Shown here in pieces: positions 48,128-60,149 of a DNA stretch of 64,000 nucleotides. Numbering within the stretch: position 1 is the first letter of the stretch; the number at the start of each line of letters is the position of its first letter. The position numbers and the translations under genes were made by a program. The notes under the pieces are model-generated. The model ran no database searches and was not told the origin of the DNA. It saw only the letters and a list, made by a program, of their open reading frames with translations. The DNA comes from Candidatus Multivoradales bacterium (GTDB taxonomy: Bacteria; Acidobacteriota; Thermoanaerobaculia; Multivoradales; J023), in contig CBDFLE010000005.1 in assembly GCA_965248925.1 (NCBI GenBank), positions 1,856,001 to 1,920,000 on the forward strand, read 5' to 3'.

Positions 48128-48322
48128 TTCCCAGAAGAAAGTGTCTCACTTTCATTGACACATTCCGGATCTCACTCCGGGTCGCTATACGGTCTACTTG
48201 ACCCATCCGGAACTTCTCGAACAGAGTCGCTCTTGCGAAGTGCAGGTCTCGGCCAATGTCGGAGGTCTTTGCCGATTGGACCTCCTGTCGGTCACTGCGG
48301 AAGACTATTGGGAGGACGCGGG

Positions 48323-49408
48323 ATGGTGGCGTTGAGAATCTGGCGAAGTTCGACCGCCTTACTGCTTCTTGGATGGCTCCTTGTCCCATCGTTGCTCGGT
48401 GCTGCTGATGATTTCTTGGGCGCCTACAAGCAGGGGCTCAAGGCTATAGAGAGCCGGCAATGGGATCTTGCTGCGGAGAAAATGCGCGAGGCGTTAGCAG
48501 GACGCGCAGAGGAGAGCCGCAGACTCATCAAGAAGGGCTATCGCCGCAGATACCTACCGCATTATTTCCTCGGCGTCGCTCATTTTGAACTCGACGACTG
48601 CGAAAGTGCGCTTGAATCTTGGACGGAATCGGAACGCCAAGGCGTGGTCACCCGGCACAAGAACTACTATGAGAACCTCGCCCACTCCCGTGAACAATGC
48701 CAGGCCCGCAGTCGCGTCACTGATCAGATCGCCCCCCTCCAGCGGCAGCTCACCAAGTTGAGTTCGAAAGTATCCCGAGCATCGAGCCTGAAACGGGACC
48801 CGGAGCTCCAGGCCACTTGGGACACGGGATCACCTTCGCTGGCGGAGCGGCAGGCCAGAGCCCAGGAAAAGCTGCGACAAGCGCGCACTCGACTTGAGCA
48901 AGCCCAGTCGCAAGCAGATCTCGATTTGTTACCAGGGGTCGAGGACTTGCTCGCTGATGCAGGTCGAGAATGGAGAACTTTCGAGCAACAAGCCGAGGCT
49001 CAGCGCGCGAAAGTACGACCGACACACATTGCAAGGAAGCACGAGAACCAGGAAGGGAACACTTTGCAACAGCTGGATCCATCGATCCTGGGGATCGACC
49101 CTCCTCCCGCCGAGCTGGATGCCGCTGGGAGAGCTTTTCTGCACGGTGACTATCCACAGGTGATCGAGATTCTCGAGGGTTTTTCTGCCGAAGACAAGCG
49201 CGCCATGGCCCATGTCCACTTGCTGCGCTCAGCGGCTCTCTTCGCTTTGCATCGCATCCGAGGCGATGGCGTAATGCTGACCCTAGCTCGTGGGGAGGCC
49301 CGCGCGGCCCGTGCGGCCGACCCAGAGCTGGTATTGCCCGAGCGCTTCTTCTCAGCCCGTTTCCGTGAGCTGTTTCATCCTATAGAAGAATCTGACCAGG
49401 AGGATTGA
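48323..49408 (+). CDS. Secreted TPR/coiled-coil protein
   Basis: GGAGG RBS, ATG 48323, signal peptide, YLPHYFLGVAHFELDDC TPR. Confidence 0.75.
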   Translation: MVALRIWRSSTALLLLGWLLVPSLLGAADDFLGAYKQGLKAIESRQWDLAAEKMREALAGRAEESRRLIKKGYRRRYLPHYFLGVAHFELDDCESALESWTESERQGVVTRHKNYYENLAHSREQCQARSRVTDQIAPLQRQLTKLSSKVSRASSLKRDPELQATWDTGSPSLAERQARAQEKLRQARTRLEQAQSQADLDLLPGVEDLLADAGREWRTFEQQAEAQRAKVRPTHIARKHENQEGNTLQQLDPSILGIDPPPAELDAAGRAFLHGDYPQVIEILEGFSAEDKRAMAHVHLLRSAALFALHRIRGDGVMLTLARGEARAARAADPELVLPERFFSARFRELFHPIEESDQED

Positions 49409-50983
49409 ATGGACTCAGACCTTTGGTATTACTCTCGCGACGGAGAAGAAAAAATAGGCCCGACTCCTGGAGACGATCTCCGGCATTGGATCGGCACCGG
49501 CCAATTGTCCCTCGAGACCCTGGTCTGGCGTCCGGACATGGACGATTGGATACCGATCCTGAACGTCGAGGAGTTCCAAGGCGCCGCCCCGCCCCTCGGC
49601 ATCAAGCAGGCCGCTGCGGAAGCGCACGGCCCGGATACCAGGCGTCTCTTCATGGTACTCAAGCAGGTTAGAGACGCTTTACCTTTGAGTCCCAAGTCCC
49701 TCCTCAACTTCTTCAGCTCAAAGTTTTTCTGGTTCGGGGTGGCGGCTCCGATCATCGTTTTCAAGATGCTCGTCGTGCCATCCATCGTCTCTCGCGCCGC
49801 GTCTTTCTTGGCCGACAGGTACGGCGTCGAGATGTCGGTCGAAGACTGGAGCGCAAACCTTCTCGATCTGAGCGCTACGGCGCACAACGCGGTCATCTCC
49901 ATTCCTGGACCCTACGCGGAGTCGGAGTTCTTGAGCGCTGAGGCGATCGAGATCGACCTCTCCCTATGGCATCGTATCGATCACAAAAAGTGGGTTCGCG
50001 ATATCCGGATCAAGGAGCCCAAAATCTATGCCGAGCGCCTGCTCTCAGGCCGTTGGAACTACCATGATCTGATGAGTGCACCGATCTCTCCACAGGTCAA
50101 TCCAGGGCCCCGGAAGAAGCTGGAGAAGGGTGAGATACAGGATCCGGAAGGGAAGTATTCTTTCTCGTTGGCGGGTGTGAGCGTCGAGCAGATGGGGCTG
50201 GAGTGGGTCGAAAATCTGCCCGGAAACTCCAAGAGTGGGATGATCCAGGAGTTGAAAACGACACTTTTCATCGACGACATTGAGGTGACCACGAAGAATC
50301 TCGTCGGCCTGGTGGACTTGAATTCTGATCGAAGAAGTCTGCTGAACCTGGAAGCCCGTACTGGCAGTGGTAAGATTTCTTTTACCGGCAGCGCCAATCT
50401 TTTCTTTTGGAAAACCTCCCAAGAGACGGCCGATGAAGTGGATTGGATGCCTGCCTTGAAAGGCGAGATCTATCTCGAGAATGTCGGCACCAATGCCTTT
50501 ACGCGCCTGATGCCAGATGCCGCGATTCTGCCCAAGGGAGGCACCCTCTCCGGTACTATTGAACTTGAATTGGAGGAGGGACAGGTCGAGTGCTATGCAC
50601 GCCTCAACCTACGCGATGCGACCTTCACCGCCAACCAAGCGTCCCGGTTTGTGTCTAACAACGCTTCCGCGATCAATGCGGACCTTTCCGGCTATCGGGC
50701 AAACGGGCAGTATCAGTTCAACTGTGGAGGTCGGCTGGGTGAAGAGACCTACCGCCCCTTCCAAGCTTTCCAGACCAACATGATCCTCCACGGTGTCGGC
50801 CAAGCCCCGAAATCGGTCCGGGTTCTGGCCGCCGTCGAACACGTTCGCTACAGTGAGGATCCGATCGATTCCAGCCTCGAGAGCGAGGTGAACAGGATCT
50901 TAGGAAACGAAGAACCAGAATGGCTCAGATGGGCCGGGCTAGCGTCTAAGGCGAGAAACTTTGGTCGCGGTAGGAGGCACTAG
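49409..50983 (+). CDS. GYF_2 (DUF4339) + TM + AsmA/DUF748-like protein
   Basis: WYYSRDGEEKIGP...TLVWRPDMDDW, a TM helix, then a beta-rich region with GRWNY. Confidence 0.72.
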   Translation: MDSDLWYYSRDGEEKIGPTPGDDLRHWIGTGQLSLETLVWRPDMDDWIPILNVEEFQGAAPPLGIKQAAAEAHGPDTRRLFMVLKQVRDALPLSPKSLLNFFSSKFFWFGVAAPIIVFKMLVVPSIVSRAASFLADRYGVEMSVEDWSANLLDLSATAHNAVISIPGPYAESEFLSAEAIEIDLSLWHRIDHKKWVRDIRIKEPKIYAERLLSGRWNYHDLMSAPISPQVNPGPRKKLEKGEIQDPEGKYSFSLAGVSVEQMGLEWVENLPGNSKSGMIQELKTTLFIDDIEVTTKNLVGLVDLNSDRRSLLNLEARTGSGKISFTGSANLFFWKTSQETADEVDWMPALKGEIYLENVGTNAFTRLMPDAAILPKGGTLSGTIELELEEGQVECYARLNLRDATFTANQASRFVSNNASAINADLSGYRANGQYQFNCGGRLGEETYRPFQAFQTNMILHGVGQAPKSVRVLAAVEHVRYSEDPIDSSLESEVNRILGNEEPEWLRWAGLASKARNFGRGRRH

Positions 50984-51134
50984 GATTGGGCAGGGCCTGG
51001 GGTTGCGATACTGCCCATCTTAGAACAGGACCGTTCGATGGCCTGGTGTTCATCAGCAATCGCGCGCACAAGAGAGCAAAAGGGCGATCCCTATCGAGCC
51101 GTATGCTCGGCGCCGCTGGAGTACAATGGGCGGC

Positions 51135-51809
51135 ATGATCAAACCCGAACTGATCCGCAGTCGCCTGGGAGTGCTGATCGCGCTGCTGCTTCTTGGCCTG
51201 TCTTTGGCTGGCGGGGTTTTCGCCGACGATACGCCACCGTCGCGTCCCGCCGCCGCCCCCACCTGAAGCGGCTGACCCGGTGAAGGAGCGCCGCTCCGGG
51301 GGAGCGGCATCGACTACGACTTCAGTTTTTCCCTGCGTTTCGTCGACACCGAGCTCGACCGACCGCGCTGGCGCTCGACGTTCCACTACCGCTTGCATCC
51401 GCGGTTGCAGCTCGGCGTCGAGGTCAACCCAGCGGCCGACGAGGTCGGGCCGCTGCTCACCTGGTTCTTGCTCACCGAGGGCGAGAGGCGGCCAGCGATG
51501 TTTCTCGGCACCAGTTCCGATCGCATCGGCTCGCCTGCCGGTGAGCAGTCGTACTTTCTGACCGTCGCCAAGCATCATCCACGGTTGCCAGTGTCAGCTT
51601 ACGCGAGCCTCAACTACTCGGAATGGGACGACGGCTTCAACGCGCCCTTCGGCGTTGAGGTCGAGTTCGGCGAGCGCTTTTCCCTGCGCCAGATGTACGA
51701 TGGTCAGCGGACTCACCTGATGCTCAACTACGCCGACCGCAGCTACGGTGTCTCGCTGCTCTGGGTCTGGCTCGAGCGCATCGGTATCGCCTTCTCGAAA
51801 CGGTTCTGA
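51135..51809 (+). CDS. Putative selenoprotein (UxxU) with signal peptide and outer-membrane beta-barrel-like domain
   Basis: One frame from ATG 51135 (or 51126) to TGA 51809, interrupted only by TGA 51264-51266 and TGA 51273-51275 (T-U-S-G-U-P). Amphipathic strands and a C-terminal Phe. Confidence 0.7.
51290..51308 (+). promoter_or_regulatory. Candidate bacterial SECIS hairpin
   Basis: GCCGCTCC-GGG-GGAGCGGC. The G-containing loop lies ~22 nt after the second TGA and ~31 nt after the first. Confidence 0.55.
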
Positions 51810-51823
51810 CTTGAGGTTCTGAG

Positions 51824-52525
51824 ATGAAGATCATCAGCAACACCTGGATCGCCCTGGCCTTCGCTGCCGTCACCGCCACCACCGCGGCGGTGGCCGAAGA
51901 AGCAATCACCGCCACCACGGCGAGCACGGCGCCCGCGGTGTGCCCAGTCTGCCGGGTGCATGAAGGAGAGACCGAAGCCGAGCCGGTCGTCGCTTCTGCC
52001 GAGCACGACGGCCATACCTACGGTTTCTGCTCGATCAAATGCCGCGACACATTCCTCGAGGCACCCGTGAGCTACCTGCCGCCGGTCTTCCCTCGACCAG
52101 CGCCTGCATTTGTTGTCCACGACCTGAACGGTGCCGAGGTCTCCTCCGACACGTTCCGCGGCAAAACGGTGCTGCTCGACTTCTGGGCTACCTGGTGCCA
52201 GCCCTGCCTCGACGACCTGCCGAAGCTGACCCGTCTGCACAACCGCTATGCCGAAGACGGTCTAGTGGTCCTCAGCCTGTCGATCGATGAGGGAGAGAAG
52301 GCAGCCCGCAAGGTCAAACGCACAATCAAACGTCGCGGCGCCAAGCATCCCGTCTACCACGATGCCACCGGCACGCCGGCCTGGGAGTCATACCAGGTAC
52401 GGGTGGTGCCGACTCAGTTCCTGGTCGACAGCAAGGGTCGGATCGTCGCCCAGTGGTCGGGGCAAACCGATCTCGCCGCGGTCGAAGCTGAGATTGCCCG
52501 CCTGCTCGCCGCCGGCACCGACTGA
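51824..52525 (+). CDS. Exported YHS-domain + TlpA-family thiol:disulfide oxidoreductase
   Basis: Signal peptide, CPVC...YGFCSIKC (YHS), LDFWATWCQPC, VPTQFLVD. Confidence 0.9.
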   Translation: MKIISNTWIALAFAAVTATTAAVAEEAITATTASTAPAVCPVCRVHEGETEAEPVVASAEHDGHTYGFCSIKCRDTFLEAPVSYLPPVFPRPAPAFVVHDLNGAEVSSDTFRGKTVLLDFWATWCQPCLDDLPKLTRLHNRYAEDGLVVLSLSIDEGEKAARKVKRTIKRRGAKHPVYHDATGTPAWESYQVRVVPTQFLVDSKGRIVAQWSGQTDLAAVEAEIARLLAAGTD

Positions 52526-52542
52526 CCAATGAGACTTGGCCG

Positions 52543-52582
52543 AAGAAAAACTACGGCGGCGAAAACCCGTGTTTCGCCGCCG
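52543..52582 (-). terminator. Intrinsic terminator of katG (possibly bidirectional)
   Basis: Stem CGGCGGCGAAA/TTTCGCCGCCG (52554-52582) followed on the minus strand by TAGTTTTTCTT. Confidence 0.75.
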
Positions 52583-52591
52583 CCGTTGCGA

Positions 52592-54901
<2,310 letters not shown>

Positions 54902-54911
54902 TCAGACAGCT

Positions 54912-55355
54912 CTACTCTCCTCCATCTGGCGCCGCTTTCTGGCACGCCGGGCAGCGCCCCCAGTAGATGACCTCCGCTTCGTCGATCTCGAAACCGTGAT
55001 CATCGTCGGCGATCAGGCAGGGCGCCACCCCGTGCGCGCAGTCGATGTCAAACGTCGTGTCGCAGCCGCGGCAGATCAGGTGATGATGATTGTCACCCAC
55101 TCGATCCTCGTACCGGGCCGCAGATCCCGCCGGTTGGATACGGCGCACCAAGTTCTTCTCGACCAGGACACCGAGGGTGTCATAGACCGCCTGGCGGGAA
55201 ATCGACCCGATCACCGCCCGGACGACATCGATCAACTCGTCGGCCCGAGCATGGGGATGAGACGACACCGCTCGCAGGATGGCCAACCGTTGAGCCGTCA
55301 CCTGCAGACCGTGCTGACGCAGGAGCTGCTCGACATCGTCTTGCATGGCGGGCAT
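54912..55355 (-). CDS. furA: Fur-family peroxide-responsive regulator (FurA/PerR-like)
   Basis: [49 protein letters not shown]. Directly upstream of katG. Confidence 0.9.
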
Positions 55356-55366
55356 ATGATCACGGA

Positions 55367-55385
55367 TTCTGGACTGAGTCAAGTA
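55367..55385 (-). promoter_or_regulatory. FurA-box-like operator overlapping a TTGACT -35 element
   Basis: Imperfect palindrome CTTGACT-C-AGTCCAG on the minus strand just upstream of the start, similar to the mycobacterial furA operator. Confidence 0.65.
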
Positions 55386-55685
55386 TTTGATTGAGCCTAG
55401 AATCTGGCTCGGTCTTAGCCCCGGCTCTGGGGCGCTCTGTTGGCAGCGTGGCTGTGAGCAGCGTGCGAGACGCCTAGCAGTTGCCGCGGGATTCCTCAAC
55501 GTCCCGACAACCTTTTCAGCAACGCCGAGTCTCCCCTTCCAGAGGACATTCGAGATTCACCCTGTGCTTTTCATTGCACAGGTGTCATTTCCCGAACGGC
55601 ACGACTGGACCCTAAACTATGGGATGGAGTCCAACCGATGACGTGGCAGGACCTCGACCACTGAGAACCAATAAGGAGAACCGCC

Positions 55686-56012
55686 GTGAGCGCGAAATTC
55701 GAGATCTTCAAGGGGAACGACCAGAAACACTATTTCCGCTACCTTGGCAATTCCGGATCTCAGATCTTGCGCAGCGAGGCCTACGAAGAGCGGGCAGGAG
55801 CTGTCAACGGGATCAACTCGGTCAAGGCAAACTCGCAGCGCGACTCTGCATTTCAGCGCCACACCAATCAGGCAGGGCGCTTCTACTTCAACTTGGTTGC
55901 CGGCAACCACCAGATCATTGCCACGAGCAACCCCTACCGCAATACCAGTGAAAGGACAAAGGCGATCAGCGACGTCAAGAGTCACGCCGCCAACGCCCCG
56001 ACCGAAGATTGA
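55686..56012 (+). CDS. YegP/DUF1508 tandem-domain protein
   Basis: KFEIFK...ILRSEAY...NGINSVKAN, then FYFNLVAGNHQIIATS. TAAGGAG RBS. Confidence 0.9.
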   Translation: MSAKFEIFKGNDQKHYFRYLGNSGSQILRSEAYEERAGAVNGINSVKANSQRDSAFQRHTNQAGRFYFNLVAGNHQIIATSNPYRNTSERTKAISDVKSHAANAPTED

Positions 56013-56034
56013 CCGCCGACTACGAATTCTAGGC

Positions 56035-56730
56035 ATGGGAGGTGACTTGCAAGCGCCACTGAATTCGCAAGTAGCAACCGAGTTGCTATCATCTCAAGCC
56101 TGGACTCGGGAAAAATCGTCCGAGACCACTTCGAGAAAGGGAAAGAATATCCGCTCAAGCTCGCAAGTCATCTCCGGGCAACAGCAAGTCGAGGTTCTTT
56201 TCCGGCAATACTATGGCCGGGTCAAGGGTTTTTTCCGCCGTCGCGGGTGCGATGAGGAAGAAGCCAAAGAACTTGTTCAGACGGTTTTCCTGAGAGCCTC
56301 CCGCGGGCATTCGCGACTCCGCGATCCGACGGCGGAAGCGGGTTGGATGTTCACCATCGCCGGCAACGTGTGGCGCTCTCATATTCGCGATCGGAGAGCC
56401 GAAAAACGCGACGCTACCGAAGTCGCGCTCCAGGGCATGGACGACCAGGGCGAGGGGTTGATCGCCGAGCAAGGCCTAACCACTCTTGATGAGGGCCCAT
56501 TGCACGCCTTGCTGGGCAAGGAACGTCAGCTAGAGCTGCACCGGGCGATCTCCGAGCTACCACCGCAGATGCGAGCTTGCTTGGAACTCCGGGTCGGCCA
56601 AGATCGCAAGTATCGCGAGATTGCTCAGATCCTCGGAGTCAGCGAGAGCACGGTTAAAACCCAGATCTTTCACGCCAAATTCAAGCTAAAAAAGTACCTC
56701 GTACAGGTTTTCGGCGGCAATCAAGCATGA
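56035..56730 (+). CDS. ECF sigma-70 factor
   Basis: EEAKELVQTVF, GWMFTIAGN, LPPQMRACLEL, YREIAQILGVSESTVK. Start uncertain. Confidence 0.88.
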   Translation: MGGDLQAPLNSQVATELLSSQAWTREKSSETTSRKGKNIRSSSQVISGQQQVEVLFRQYYGRVKGFFRRRGCDEEEAKELVQTVFLRASRGHSRLRDPTAEAGWMFTIAGNVWRSHIRDRRAEKRDATEVALQGMDDQGEGLIAEQGLTTLDEGPLHALLGKERQLELHRAISELPPQMRACLELRVGQDRKYREIAQILGVSESTVKTQIFHAKFKLKKYLVQVFGGNQA

Positions 56731-57530
56731 TCGACCTCAACCCGCTCCAGGCTCTATTGGCCTCGCTCTCGGAAGGCGAAAAGCGCCAGGGAAAAGCCGC
56801 GACGATCACCCTGGAGGATCTGGTTGCCTATCGTCAAGGCCAGCTCACACCGGCCAAGGCCAGAGCTGTGGAAAGAGCAATGGCGATGGATCGTCGATGG
56901 GCGGATTTGATGCTCGAGCTGGCCCACTTCGAAGAAGAGCAGACGGGCCTCCCCGAGCCCTTTCTCGGCACCGACGAGGTCGACCGGGAGTGGCGAACTC
57001 TGGAAGCCCGACTAGAGAACGCTCCCCGGCTCGACACCCGTGTTCACCGGTTCGTCAATCGCCGGCCGCTATTGTCGCTCGCCGCATCGCTGGCTGCCGG
57101 GGCCGGCCTGATGTGGCTGGTGCTGTGGAGTACGGCGGCGATCTCTCCTCTGCGGTCTGACCACCGAACCAGTGTCATCACGCTGTCACCGAGCGTCCAA
57201 GCAGAGCCATCGAAGCGCTCCACTCGCCCCGAGATCGAAAGGATCAGTCTGCCGGCAGACACCACTCAGCTTTTCTTTGAAGTCCGCCCCTCGCGGTTGA
57301 TCCGTAACGCCATCTTTAGCTACCAGATCACCCTCGGCGACAAAGTCATCCGGTACGGCGACGCCTGGAGCGAAGGCAGCCATTTCATCACCTTCTTGAT
57401 CGACCGTCGCGGCCTGGTCAATGGGGCGCGGTACCGCTTGCGGATCACCACCATGCGCGGCGAGCCGATGGTCGAAACCGAATTCGTGCTCGGGCCCAAG
57501 ACGACCTCCCACCGGGCCGACGAGAGGTAA
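56727..57530 (+). CDS. Putative anti-sigma factor (single TM, C-terminal Ig-like domain)
   Basis: ATGA overlap with the sigma gene, LVAYRQGQL anti-sigma-like N-terminus, LAASLAAG TM segment. Confidence 0.75.
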   Translation: MIDLNPLQALLASLSEGEKRQGKAATITLEDLVAYRQGQLTPAKARAVERAMAMDRRWADLMLELAHFEEEQTGLPEPFLGTDEVDREWRTLEARLENAPRLDTRVHRFVNRRPLLSLAASLAAGAGLMWLVLWSTAAISPLRSDHRTSVITLSPSVQAEPSKRSTRPEIERISLPADTTQLFFEVRPSRLIRNAIFSYQITLGDKVIRYGDAWSEGSHFITFLIDRRGLVNGARYRLRITTMRGEPMVETEFVLGPKTTSHRADER

Positions 57531-57533
57531 GAA

Positions 57534-60149
57534 GTGGCCACCCGGCAGCGATTCGGTCGATGGGCGGCACTCTCAGGACTGCTCACCCTCGGTCTGACCC
57601 TCGCCTGCGACCCACCCCGAACCGGCTACCCACCGATTCCGCCGGCAAAAGCCGCGGCACAGCCACGAGAAAACCTGCTCATCGAGCTGACGAAGGGCTT
57701 CAAGCCCTGCCGGCCGGGCAGCGTCGAGGCGCTGAAGATCCATCGCGACGCCAGGAGTGCGGGAGACGATCTACACCACCTCGCCTACCACCACGAAGCA
57801 GCCGCGGAGCGGTTGCAGGCCCTCGGCTTTCCCTGCTTGGCAGTCGACAACTTGAATCGTCAAGGTCAAGCGCTGCGAAAGCTACGAAAGGTAGATCAAG
57901 CGCGCCATCTCTACTTGCGCCAGGCCTTGCCAGAGGCCCGTTCGGCCGGATTCGTTCGCGGCGCCGCTCAGACCTTGAACAATCTAGCTGTGCTCGAGCG
58001 TGGGGGACGCAACCTGCGCCAAGCATTGGACTATTTTCAGGCTGCCTCATATCTCTTCGCTTACTTGGACGACCGCCGGCAATGGACTCTGGTGCAGCTC
58101 AACCTGGGCGAAATGGAGTTCCGGCTCGGGCGTTTAGCAGCGGCTCACGCTCGGCTCGAGTCCGCCGCCGAGCGTTTTCGCCAAGCAGCTGACGACCGCT
58201 ACCTGGCCGCGGCCCTAACCTGGCTCGGCCGCACAGAGATCGCCCTGGGGCTGACCGACTCGGATGACCGCTATCGCCGTTTGGCTATAACCCGGCTGCG
58301 CGAAGCGGTTGGGTTGCGCCGTCGAGCCGACAGCGGACCGCTAGCCCTCGGCACTTCTCTGGACGGGTTGGGAAGAGCTTTCCTGGAGGATCGTCAGTAC
58401 CGCGAGGCGGAAAGTGCTTTGCAAGAAGCTGAGCTGTTGTTCAGCTCCCTGCAGGCCGACTTCTCTACCGCCAACGTGCAGGTCAATCTGGCGGCAGTGC
58501 GGCTGGGCCAAGCACTCCCGGCCGAGGCTCTGGCGCTGGTCGACGGAGTACTCGGCCAACCGGCGCCGACGCGGCTCGGCCTGGCGGAATGGAATGTTCG
58601 CAACGAAGCCCTGCTGATCAATGCCAGGGCACAGCTCTCCCTGGGCAACCGGGACCTCGCCAGCGTGGCGCTCGGGCAGGCGATCGCCCTCTTCGAGGTC
58701 CTGCGCACTGACAACGGGAGCTTGATGGACTCAGCTCTGGCGCTTCGCAAGCCCGCTGTCGATCTCTACCTCGAATTGTTGATCGACGATCGACGGTGGC
58801 CGGAAGCCTTTGACCTCATTGAGCTTCATCGTGCCCGCAGCCTGTTGGATCGCCTGCTGTTCTCTCCCCGCGAAGTGCTGCTCAGGTCTGGTGCGCCCCA
58901 GCTGCTGGCGCAATACGAAGAACTGCGAGCCGACCTGCTCCAGCTGGCAGCGACCTTGCCGGAGCCTCGCAGCGACCCTGTGCAACACCTCGACCTTGAG
59001 CTACGACAGTTACTCCACCGGCTACTGGCAATTGAAGAAGAGATCCGCGAGAAAGCCCAGATGCGCTCAGCGACACCGCTGCGTCGTCATCAGGCTGAGG
59101 ATCTGCTCGTGCCGGGGAGCTTGTTCGTTGGCTACTGGCTGGGCGCTCAACGCAGCTGGGTCTTTATCCTTGAGCATGGGCGAGAAGATCAAGTGCTGGA
59201 ACTGTCGGTTTCCCGCAGCCTGATCGAGTCTTCTGTCGAGGAGCTGCGGCGCGAACTCGCACGCGGCAACGGCTCCTCACGGCGGGCGAAGAACGAAGCT
59301 AGCTTTCTATCTTCACGGCTCCTGGAACCAATCGCCGAACGCTTAATAGGGGCCGAGAGACTGGTGCTGCTGGTCGACGGCCCGCTCATGGCACTTCCAT
59401 ATGCGGCCCTTCCATCGCCACTCAAAGGCGACACTCTCCTGGTCGATTCGCTACCGTTGGTGAAGATCTCCTCGGTCTCGACCTTGATGGTGCTGCGCCA
59501 ACGGCAGGCGGCCCGACGGCACGAGCAGAAACACCACCTGACGATCTTCTCCGACCCGAGTTACGACCTCGAAAACTCCTGGCCGCGGATCGAGGGAACT
59601 CGCCAGGAGGCCGAGTCCATTCGCCGCTTCTTCCCCACCGACCGGGTCTATCTGGGAAGTGCTGCCAGCCGCGAGAATCTGCTGGCCGGAGTCGCCAGCG
59701 ATAGTCGGTGGATCCATATCGCCAGCCACGGCACCCTTGACGTCAACCACCCTGAGCTTTCTCGTCTGCGTTTGGCGACTCTCGACGAGCATGGCCACGC
59801 TATCGATGGCAGGCTGCACTTGACGGATCTGAACCAACTCCGGCTCTCGGCCTCGCTGGTGGTGCTTTCGGGCTGCGAAACGGCCATCGGTCAACCTCTC
59901 AGAGGCAGCGGGCCGCTGGCCTTCCCGAGTGCTTTTCTCTACGCCGGCGCGGCGGGCGTGATCGCCAGTCTGTGGCCGGTCGACGATCAGGCGACCGTCG
60001 CTCTAATGACAGAGCTCTACCGTGGCCTGGGCGCAGGTCTCGATCCACCGCGGGCTCTGCAACAAGCGCAGCGGTCGATGTCGCGGGGCAAATACTACGA
60101 CCCGGCCTACTGGGCTGCCTGGGCCTTCGTTGGTGATTGGCAAGGTTGA
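57534..60149 (+). CDS. TPR + CHAT protease, predicted lipoprotein
   Basis: Lipobox LTLAC, TPRs, DGPLMALPYAAL, HIASHG, LSGCET, SLWPVDD, YWAAW. Confidence 0.9.
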   Translation: MATRQRFGRWAALSGLLTLGLTLACDPPRTGYPPIPPAKAAAQPRENLLIELTKGFKPCRPGSVEALKIHRDARSAGDDLHHLAYHHEAAAERLQALGFPCLAVDNLNRQGQALRKLRKVDQARHLYLRQALPEARSAGFVRGAAQTLNNLAVLERGGRNLRQALDYFQAASYLFAYLDDRRQWTLVQLNLGEMEFRLGRLAAAHARLESAAERFRQAADDRYLAAALTWLGRTEIALGLTDSDDRYRRLAITRLREAVGLRRRADSGPLALGTSLDGLGRAFLEDRQYREAESALQEAELLFSSLQADFSTANVQVNLAAVRLGQALPAEALALVDGVLGQPAPTRLGLAEWNVRNEALLINARAQLSLGNRDLASVALGQAIALFEVLRTDNGSLMDSALALRKPAVDLYLELLIDDRRWPEAFDLIELHRARSLLDRLLFSPREVLLRSGAPQLLAQYEELRADLLQLAATLPEPRSDPVQHLDLELRQLLHRLLAIEEEIREKAQMRSATPLRRHQAEDLLVPGSLFVGYWLGAQRSWVFILEHGREDQVLELSVSRSLIESSVEELRRELARGNGSSRRAKNEASFLSSRLLEPIAERLIGAERLVLLVDGPLMALPYAALPSPLKGDTLLVDSLPLVKISSVSTLMVLRQRQAARRHEQKHHLTIFSDPSYDLENSWPRIEGTRQEAESIRRFFPTDRVYLGSAASRENLLAGVASDSRWIHIASHGTLDVNHPELSRLRLATLDEHGHAIDGRLHLTDLNQLRLSASLVVLSGCETAIGQPLRGSGPLAFPSAFLYAGAAGVIASLWPVDDQATVALMTELYRGLGAGLDPPRALQQAQRSMSRGKYYDPAYWAAWAFVGDWQG

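Follow-up and report, generated by a model that had tools for sequence, protein, structure and literature searches.

The question raised by this locus is whether a short open reading frame (ORF), preceded by two closely spaced TGA codons, is a gene in itself or the visible part of a longer gene in which both TGA codons are read as selenocysteine (Sec). The locus is located in a 64,000-nucleotide stretch of the genome of Candidatus Multivoradales bacterium, phylum Acidobacteriota (assembly GCA_965248925.1, contig CBDFLE010000005.1, positions 1,856,001 to 1,920,000 of the forward strand). This whole stretch is hereafter called the window; coordinates are those of the window, and TGA is shown as U in the read-through translation of 51135-51809 (+). 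The standard ORF list contains at this place only an ORF at 51393-51809 (TTG start, 138 amino acids) and a 46-amino-acid ORF ending at the first TGA. The analysis of the sequence and its relatives indicates a secreted selenoprotein of about 194 mature residues that has been missed by annotation, and the identity of the locus as a gene for an outer-membrane barrel with two selenocysteines is regarded as very likely. The best overall explanation, considered probable, is a secreted double-Sec outer-membrane barrel serviced by a redoxin.

The complete gene occupies positions 51135-51809 (+) and consists of 224 codons and a stop; two of the codons are in-frame TGA, read as Sec, and homologues align across them in one frame. 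An earlier note on this DNA had proposed that the frame of the 51393 ORF extends upstream to a signal peptide, and the ATG at 51135 and a clean frame can indeed be read in the sequence. The signal peptide (residues 1-30, 51135-51224, +), recognised by eye, has a basic start and a 20-residue hydrophobic core followed by G-V-F-A and D-D, and is modelled as a helix over residues 4-27. A Pro/Ala-rich linker connects it to the segment T-U-S-G-U-P-G-E-G, in which the first TGA (Sec44, 51264-51266, +) and the second TGA (Sec47, 51273-51275, +) have the spacing of a CxxC motif, as had been noticed before. They are followed by 177 sense codons, where about 175 had been estimated, with R-F as the last residues. 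The true stop at 51807-51809 (+) is likewise TGA. The same codon terminates 28 of 40 family genes, and therefore TGA is not reassigned genome-wide.

To what extent the TGA pair is conserved was determined with homologues from 40 related genomes, from 401 genomes sampled evenly across the phylum, and from a scan of species-representative genomes (one genome per species), which yielded at least 496 relatives, the best 80 of them being kept for analysis. After the removal of 7 duplicates this set comprised 112 distinct genes. Rows from an unpublished genome, G088 (L044), are included in the alignments and in the comparison of Cys forms, and no conclusion hangs on them alone. Among the 40 related genomes, all 15 strong matches to the read-through protein contain exactly two TGA codons, and in the phylum sample the same is true of all 32 matches covering the motif, at identities down to 32%. 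TGA is present at both positions in 79 of the best 80 species-representative loci, the 80th ending before the motif. Both codons are thus invariant in 112 of 112 distinct genes, with zero other in-frame stops in the surrounding 81 nucleotides. Nucleotide diversity at the three codon positions of these genes is 0.46, 0.44 and 0.67 upstream of the TGAs and 0.25, 0.17 and 0.48 downstream, position 3 being the most variable on both sides in the same frame. In an alignment of 39 sequences the invariant or near-invariant residues around the TGAs are P42, U44, U47, P48, G49, E50, G51 and G56, and the conserved segment, P-[TS]-U-x-x-U-P-G-E-G-x-x-x-R-G, directly precedes the barrel described below.

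A homologue with Cys at both Sec positions, P0155, is encoded on a 10.6-kb NCBI contig; its C-A-L-C aligns to U-P-L-U (42% identity, E 3e-65). Every homologue compared at both positions at the DNA level has the TGA pair, and the Cys form has a Cys pair, which is the pattern that the earlier note had asked of a selenoprotein family. Two homologues with Trp at these positions, P0044 and P0050, were considered as a counter-case with non-Cys sense codons and were rejected, being read as gene calls made with genetic code 4. The Trp residues of P0050 are regarded as such an artefact because its N-terminus matches without a difference the translated locus L104, in which the DNA reads TGA at the two positions, and because in its 90% cluster the 227-233-residue versions occur only on contigs of 1.7 kb or less and the versions of 141-158 residues on long contigs; this evidence concerns P0050, its cluster and L104, P0044 being known as a protein only. 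The barrel homologues P0181 and P0216 have a different N-terminal region, with neither UxxU nor CxxC, and therefore the barrel exists also without the Sec pair.

A hairpin with an 8-bp stem and a GGG loop is located at 51290-51308 (+), 23 nucleotides past the first TGA and 14 past the second; its sequence is GCCGCTCC-GGG-GGAGCGGC, forming a perfect stem. The loop lies about 31 nucleotides downstream of the first UGA and about 22 downstream of the second, and the UGA-to-loop range accepted by bSECISearch is 16-37 nucleotides. This hairpin had been noted earlier for its distance from the TGAs, similar to that of a selenocysteine insertion sequence (SECIS), and is now supported by covariation. 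Of 40 aligned loci, 34 share, at a fixed place, a stem of 8 bp capped by a GGG or GUG loop. In the hairpin alignment 90% of cells are paired, and both-sided compensatory changes are seen in 5 of the 8 pairs; compensatory-change cells number 40, against 12.3 expected, and none of 500 shuffles reached the observed values. In control alignments, where the partner was moved by 1-3 columns, pairing falls to 24-64%. Both arms of the stem carry compensatory changes that replace encoded amino acids, as where A-V-R-G-T-A becomes A-I-R-G-I-A, and therefore the RNA structure is kept at the expense of the protein. This single hairpin is the only conserved RNA structure found after the TGAs.

The genome possesses the machinery for Sec insertion, which had been named as a check on the proposal. 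The genes selA (515.6 bits), selB (352.9 bits) and selD (282.3 bits) and one tRNA-Sec (70.8 bits) all score over curated cut-offs, and ARAGORN reports the tRNA as tRNA-SeC with anticodon TCA; the weaker matches examined for the Rfam tRNA-Sec model have different anticodons and are ordinary tRNAs, for the most part tRNA-Ser. The selA gene is present in 31 of 31 carrier genomes from the 401-genome sample. This co-occurrence says little, since selA is widespread in the group (over the cut-off in 297 of the 401 phylum genomes and in 38 of 41 relatives). No Sec-type formate dehydrogenase alpha subunit scores over its cut-off in the genome of the window (best 58 bits vs 814), and therefore the Sec machinery must serve other selenoproteins, the window protein among them. 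The decoding of both UGAs as selenocysteine by the SelA/SelB/SelC/SelD system is strongly supported by this comparative evidence.

The region following the Sec pair is predicted to form a 12-stranded outer-membrane beta-barrel (residues 63-224, 51321-51806, +) that ends in Phe. The AlphaFold2 model, built from the 39-sequence alignment, has a mean predicted local distance difference test score (pLDDT) of 87.4 and a predicted template modelling score (pTM) of 0.79, with twelve strands between residues 63 and 223. Structure comparison found as the best fold matches FapF (Z 16.3, root-mean-square deviation (rmsd) 2.4 Å over 168 residues), the COG4313 channel (Z 16.1) and KdgM (Z 15.9), followed by autotransporter translocators (Z 13.8-14.4), LpxR (Z 14.2), NanC (Z 13.5) and OMPLA (Z 9.5). 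For FapF, COG4313, the autotransporters, KdgM and NanC, rmsd values are 2.4-3.0 Å over 150-168 residues. The leading structural matches are all outer-membrane barrels, and Foldseek returned the same class. The likeness is at the level of the fold only, with no sequence-model match to the KdgM/NanC porin, FapF, COG4313 or autotransporter families; the whole protein compared against Pfam and NCBIfam has no match at E values up to 1. Of the 39 aligned sequences, 36 end in Phe and 2 in Trp, and L039 has five residues beyond the Phe. Taken together, the signal peptide, the 12 modelled strands and the C-terminal aromatic residue support the prediction of an outer-membrane beta-barrel.

Invariant polar residues of the barrel include R68, R76, R80, E96, N98, E115, D129, R130 and K146, of which D129 and R130 belong to a G-T-S-S-D-R-I-G motif; Ser127 is invariant as well as Asp129, and His194 is nearly so. 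Judging from the order of strands, R76, R80, E96, N98, D129, R130, D189 and H194 would be in or near loops that face outward or fold into the pore. Regarding the position of the Sec pair, the earlier note had envisaged a beta-barrel carrying a diselenide on a flexible periplasmic arm. The barrel is borne out by the confident 12-stranded model, and the free arm is doubtful: since the UxxU segment is modelled at a pLDDT of about 85 and lies only about 16 residues before strand 1, it may pack at or inside the barrel rather than sit on a free flexible arm. Model residues 37-47, in the UxxU segment, are where the structural alignments with FapF, COG4313 and the autotransporters set in, and at this place those proteins have a plug or a pore-filling helix. 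A lumenal position of the UxxU segment is only a lead at the level of the model.

The gene immediately downstream, at 51824-52525 (+), had been missed by the earlier note. By Pfam and NCBIfam comparison and inspection by eye, it encodes a protein with a putative signal peptide, a YHS/TRASH-like Cys motif (C-x-x-C ... C-x-x-x-C) and a TlpA/ResA-like thioredoxin-fold domain with W-C-Q-P-C. Pfam scores over the cut-off are 71.6 bits for AhpC-TSA, 63.9 for Redoxin and 52.8 for Thioredoxin_8. In NCBIfam the ResA subfamily (96.3 bits) is under its cut-off, and the rhizobial TlpA equivalog reaches 64 bits with a cut-off of 230; therefore the protein is TlpA-like, a member at the family level only, and not TlpA. 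Of the 112 distinct loci, 96 have a relative of this redoxin encoded on the same strand as the barrel gene, directly downstream of it in 69, directly upstream in 5 and fused to it in frame in 22. ORF clustering over 113 loci revealed no other neighbour conserved in more than about 6 loci, and the other large clusters (98, 34 and 21 loci), judged by their representatives, are apparent shadow frames of the barrel and redoxin genes.

In the fused forms, which are 22 more distant homologues, the frame upstream of UxxU is open for 200-500 codons and runs from a signal peptide on to the barrel. Between the signal peptide and a linker, this upstream part contains a TlpA/ResA-like redoxin with W-A-T-[WY]-C-x-P-C, preceded in some forms by a Cys-rich domain. 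Five of these homologues scanned with Pfam and NCBIfam matched redoxin or, weakly, YHS only, with nothing over UxxU and the last 185 residues. The Cys-rich domain, covering about 130 N-terminal residues and preceding the redoxin, is found in ten fused forms (L040, L043, L047, L050-L052, L054, L055, L057 and L058), with the consensus G-Q-[VI]-[VA]-C-x-x-C-W-x-E-A-D-R ... C-x-x-x-C ... T-L-Y-x-L-E; three members scanned have no Pfam or NCBIfam match in it. The sole longer (fused, uninterrupted) form found with the window protein, P0122, was examined as a possible Cys form and set aside, being an apparent chimeric piece on a 1.7-kb contig. Because of fusion and synteny, it is strongly supported, at the level of sequence, that the redoxin is a functional partner of the UxxU barrel.

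In the mechanism proposed here, SelA, SelB, SelC and SelD would decode both UGAs with one hairpin situated inside the coding sequence. A periplasmic TlpA/ResA-like thiol-disulfide oxidoreductase, encoded adjacent to the barrel or fused upstream of it, would keep the U-x-x-U as a reduced diselenol, and this diselenol, at the periplasmic mouth or in the barrel lumen, would be the working site. TlpA keeps Cys pairs of its clients reduced, and by analogy with TlpA-type reductases the redoxin would reduce the Sec pair. As to the use of the diselenol, binding a soft metal such as Cu(I), or passing it across or at the outer membrane, is preferred with a confidence somewhat short of even, because each architecture has an extra putative metal module and because a metal-binding UxxU selenoprotein has been catalogued. 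A YHS/TRASH Cys motif is found in the unfused partner and in a class-level clade of barrel genes. Of the 22 fused forms, 9 have at least four His within the 50 residues that precede the first Sec; at least three are present there in 10 of the 12 fused forms lacking the Cys-rich N-terminal domain, compared with 1 of the 10 that have it. Truncated library proteins show extreme H-D-H-A-H-D-H linkers. A more specific and rather unlikely version is that a hairpin tipped by U-x-x-U-P-G-E-G plugs the 12-stranded channel, its diselenide/diselenol state, set by the redoxin, gating the pore or handing soft metal or electrons across the outer membrane. If true, it would be the first known coupling of periplasmic reducing power to an outer-membrane channel through selenocysteine, and the locus would be an example from nature of two UGAs, three codons apart, being decoded with a single SECIS hairpin.

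Several observations weigh against the picture of a double-Sec barrel, serviced by a redoxin and handling metal. Regarding decoding, 6 of the 40 aligned loci have another hairpin, shorter and weaker, located 4 nucleotides earlier. Folding energy on its own gives the hairpin no significance (z = -1.22), for which reason covariation was used as the evidence for it, and an Rfam scan of 51100-51500 at E values up to 10 returned four chance-level matches and no SECIS family. The UGA-to-SECIS spacing of Escherichia coli fdhF is strict, which is at odds with one hairpin serving two UGAs nine bases apart. P0155 is the only Cys homologue found, and both its motif region and its barrel are degenerate, with P-S-P-T for P-G-E-G and a 37-residue insertion. 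Regarding the partner, 16 of the 112 loci have no TlpA-like neighbour; a few of these are cut short, and several loci labelled Poribacteria and Cytophagia are intact. The metal part draws only on domain and composition hints, and among these the YHS match of the partner, at 25 bits, is below the Pfam cut-off of 30.3.

Different explanations of the TGA codons have to be weighed against Sec. Every gene caller reads them as real stops, which would leave a broken gene, or else a short secreted peptide and a separate barrel gene, and database proteins are pieces of 138-173 residues or end ...V-P-S. A barrel gene of its own, however, would lack both a signal peptide and a conserved start: the called starts differ between family members (giving 138, 142, 151, 155, 158, 161 or 166 residues, among others in that range) and fall within the conserved region. 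In the window, the nearest canonical start 3' of the TGAs is 39 codons on and would cost strand 1 and three invariant Arg. When a library of 1.84 billion representative proteins was queried with one fused form, the best relatives ended ...V-P-S before the first TGA or began just past the second; such fragments are what gene callers make of a selenoprotein gene. Codon-level constraint across phyla, with both TGAs, their neighbouring residues and the reading frame retained in 112 of 112 genes, is not what a pseudogene would show, and in 22 genes the part upstream is a whole redoxin domain in the same frame. Real stops are therefore close to refuted by conservation. Sequencing or assembly errors, suggested by nearby homopolymer runs (C5, G5) that could indicate frameshifts and otherwise only a general possibility, are refuted by the comparative data, with the same two codons in 111 other genomes; in addition, one sample, which may be where this DNA comes from, was sequenced in four runs, and the contigs of all four, at depths of 8.5-31, show 0 differences over 51000-52600. 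Reading of the UGAs as Cys, Ser or Trp by a suppressor tRNA, such as the allo-tRNAs of Acidobacteria or a tRNA-Cys of the selC* type, is also very unlikely, if somewhat less so than real stops. According to the accessible part of PMC5389517, acidobacterial tRNAs of 8/4 and 9/3 structure may be nonsense suppressors, and in other phyla UGA can be decoded by selC* tRNA-Cys together with SelB-like factors; the same part reports no selC* in Acidobacteria. Among the matches to the Rfam tRNA-Sec model, a search narrower than a whole-genome tRNA scan, tRNA-Sec is the only tRNA with a UCA anticodon. The presence of selA and selD in the genome, of selA in all the carriers checked, and of the TGA pair with its hairpin in many phyla speaks for Sec, and if suppression were general, the TGA stops that end these genes would be read through as well.

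With both Sec residues accepted as real, the site may serve redox chemistry and not metal: the TlpA-like domain would pass electrons to the diselenide, and the diselenol would reduce peroxides, disulfides or another oxidant, or would switch the channel by its redox state. The partner is, after all, a thioredoxin-fold reductase, and most catalogued selenoproteins are redox proteins, according to the accessible part of a 2026 review (PMC13188914). The outer-membrane enzymes LpxR and OMPLA are among the fold matches of the barrel, in which Ser127, Asp129 and His194 could form an active site. Genes for a katG-like catalase-peroxidase and a Fur-like regulator adjoin the locus in the window and in L009; this neighbourhood, however, occurs in just 2 of the 120 loci searched, and no conserved neighbour points to an oxidant substrate. 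A purely redox role also leaves unexplained the YHS/TRASH motif, Cys-rich domain or His-rich linker that each architecture has. It is the main alternative and is considered less likely than not, standing above the plug model and below the handling of a soft metal by the diselenol, which remains the use preferred.

The proposed barrel with a diselenol can be compared with several known systems. SelL, a eukaryotic selenoprotein with UxxU in place of CxxC and able to form a diselenide, carries the UxxU inside a thioredoxin-like fold. In the window family, in contrast, UxxU stands apart from the thioredoxin fold, whose own motif is a normal W-C-x-P-C; weak matches to SelL_rel_redox, an NCBIfam model, are limited to the redoxin part (E 0.00016 to 0.18, under the cut-off). 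SelL is listed as reference 40 in the accessible text of PMC2398784. The earlier note had described UxxU as rare and known from SelL, and it is not confined to SelL, since the review table also has UxxU in three families from bacteria, namely Prx-like (PF00578), metal-binding (NF041115) and FmdB (TIGR02605) (PMC13188914, accessible part). These share with the window protein two Sec at CxxC spacing, presumably decoded with a nearby SECIS, and NF041115 is the closest analogy for what a diselenol can do. They differ in that the window protein and the five fused homologues match none of their models, except for the redoxin domain (PF00578) of the fused part, which has Cys, and in that the UxxU of the window protein belongs to no thioredoxin or HMA fold and immediately precedes an outer-membrane barrel.

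The fold and the 12 strands are shared with FapF (5o65), the COG4313 channel (4rl8), NalP (1uyo), AIDA-I (4mee), EstA (3kvn), KdgM (4pr7) and NanC (2wjr); identity to these is 4-18%, none of them is a selenoprotein or linked to a redoxin, and a shared fold does not show a shared function. TlpA keeps the metal-binding Cys pair of its clients ScoI and CoxB reduced for copper uptake and delivery to cytochrome oxidase. The window family resembles this system in that fusion and synteny link a TlpA-like domain with a Sec pair, and differs in that the client would be an outer-membrane barrel with Sec instead of Cys. Sec is also present in two catalogued outer-membrane beta-barrel proteins, the GSU2204-family barrel of MtrB/PioB type (NF041027) and a TonB-dependent receptor of FCYXU type (NF049945) (PMC13188914, accessible part); unlike the window protein, these have one Sec each and far larger barrels and belong to unrelated families, and the window protein has no NCBIfam match to either. 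A 2026 paper on group 4 hydrogenases uses the term UxxU 23 times, in its accessible text, with no correspondence to the window protein.

The earlier impression that no described family looks like this one holds, as the window family is included neither in Pfam nor in NCBIfam release 20, is none of the known UxxU families, and is absent from the 119 prokaryotic selenoprotein families or subfamilies of the 2026 review table, as far as that source was accessible (PMC13188914). No description of it was found in the literature on outer-membrane or barrel selenoproteins, on TlpA or on Acidobacteria selenoproteomes, where supplements of papers could hold unlisted candidates. The sequence comparisons point to a large family, undescribed so far, with a thioredoxin-like partner. 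At least 496 species-representative genomes carry a relative, which public annotation represents only as a truncated 'hypothetical protein'. The phyla, as labelled, are Acidobacteriota/Thermoanaerobaculia, Gemmatimonadota, Latescibacterota, Eisenbacteria, Poribacteria, Krumholzibacteriia, Calditrichia, Planctomycetota, Methylomirabilota and Cytophagia. The selenoproteome would thereby gain a near-obligate double-Sec family, with one Cys form seen, and Sec in a small outer-membrane barrel, and the family is a possible reason for a genome to keep its Sec machinery. It also raises the questions of how a UGA pair nine bases apart is decoded from one hairpin and what role a thioredoxin-serviced diselenol has, be it metal uptake, detoxification or surface redox chemistry. 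Gene finders that choose genetic code 4 on short contigs call for caution, as they yield artefactual 'Trp' forms of selenoproteins.

Some other features concern the expression of the gene. The hexamer TACAAT, pointed out earlier as a -10 element just before the start, is located at 51122-51127 (+), 7 nucleotides before the ATG. A TAnnnT hexamer (TACAAT, TAGGAT, TAGATT, TAAATT and similar) is found 5-7 nucleotides 5' of the ATG in 10 of 12 close relatives (L001-L012), the other two being L006 and L008, the latter with just 8 nucleotides of upstream sequence. No Shine-Dalgarno sequence is visible upstream of the start codons in the window and in these 12 loci. The position of the hexamer and the lack of a visible Shine-Dalgarno sequence suggest that the gene is transcribed as a leaderless or near-leaderless mRNA. 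A full sigma-70 scan of 50950-52700 gave 0 promoters, and TACAAT remains only a hint.

On the other side of the redoxin gene, and convergent with it, is the katG-like catalase-peroxidase gene (52592-54844, -), identified by sequence, with a terminator-like hairpin between the two (52583-52553). The Fur-family-like regulator gene (54912-55499, -) is located upstream of the katG-like gene, and this pair is found beside the barrel gene also in L009 and in no other of the 120 loci searched. The gene upstream of the barrel gene (49409-50983, +) encodes a GYF_2 domain followed by a DUF748/AsmA-like region, and is preceded by an ORF with no family match (48155-49408); neither is conserved beside the barrel gene in other loci. 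Beyond the Fur-like gene, three ORFs at 55744-60149 (+) appear by eye to encode a sigma factor of the extracytoplasmic function (ECF) type, a possible anti-sigma protein and a large repeat-rich protein.

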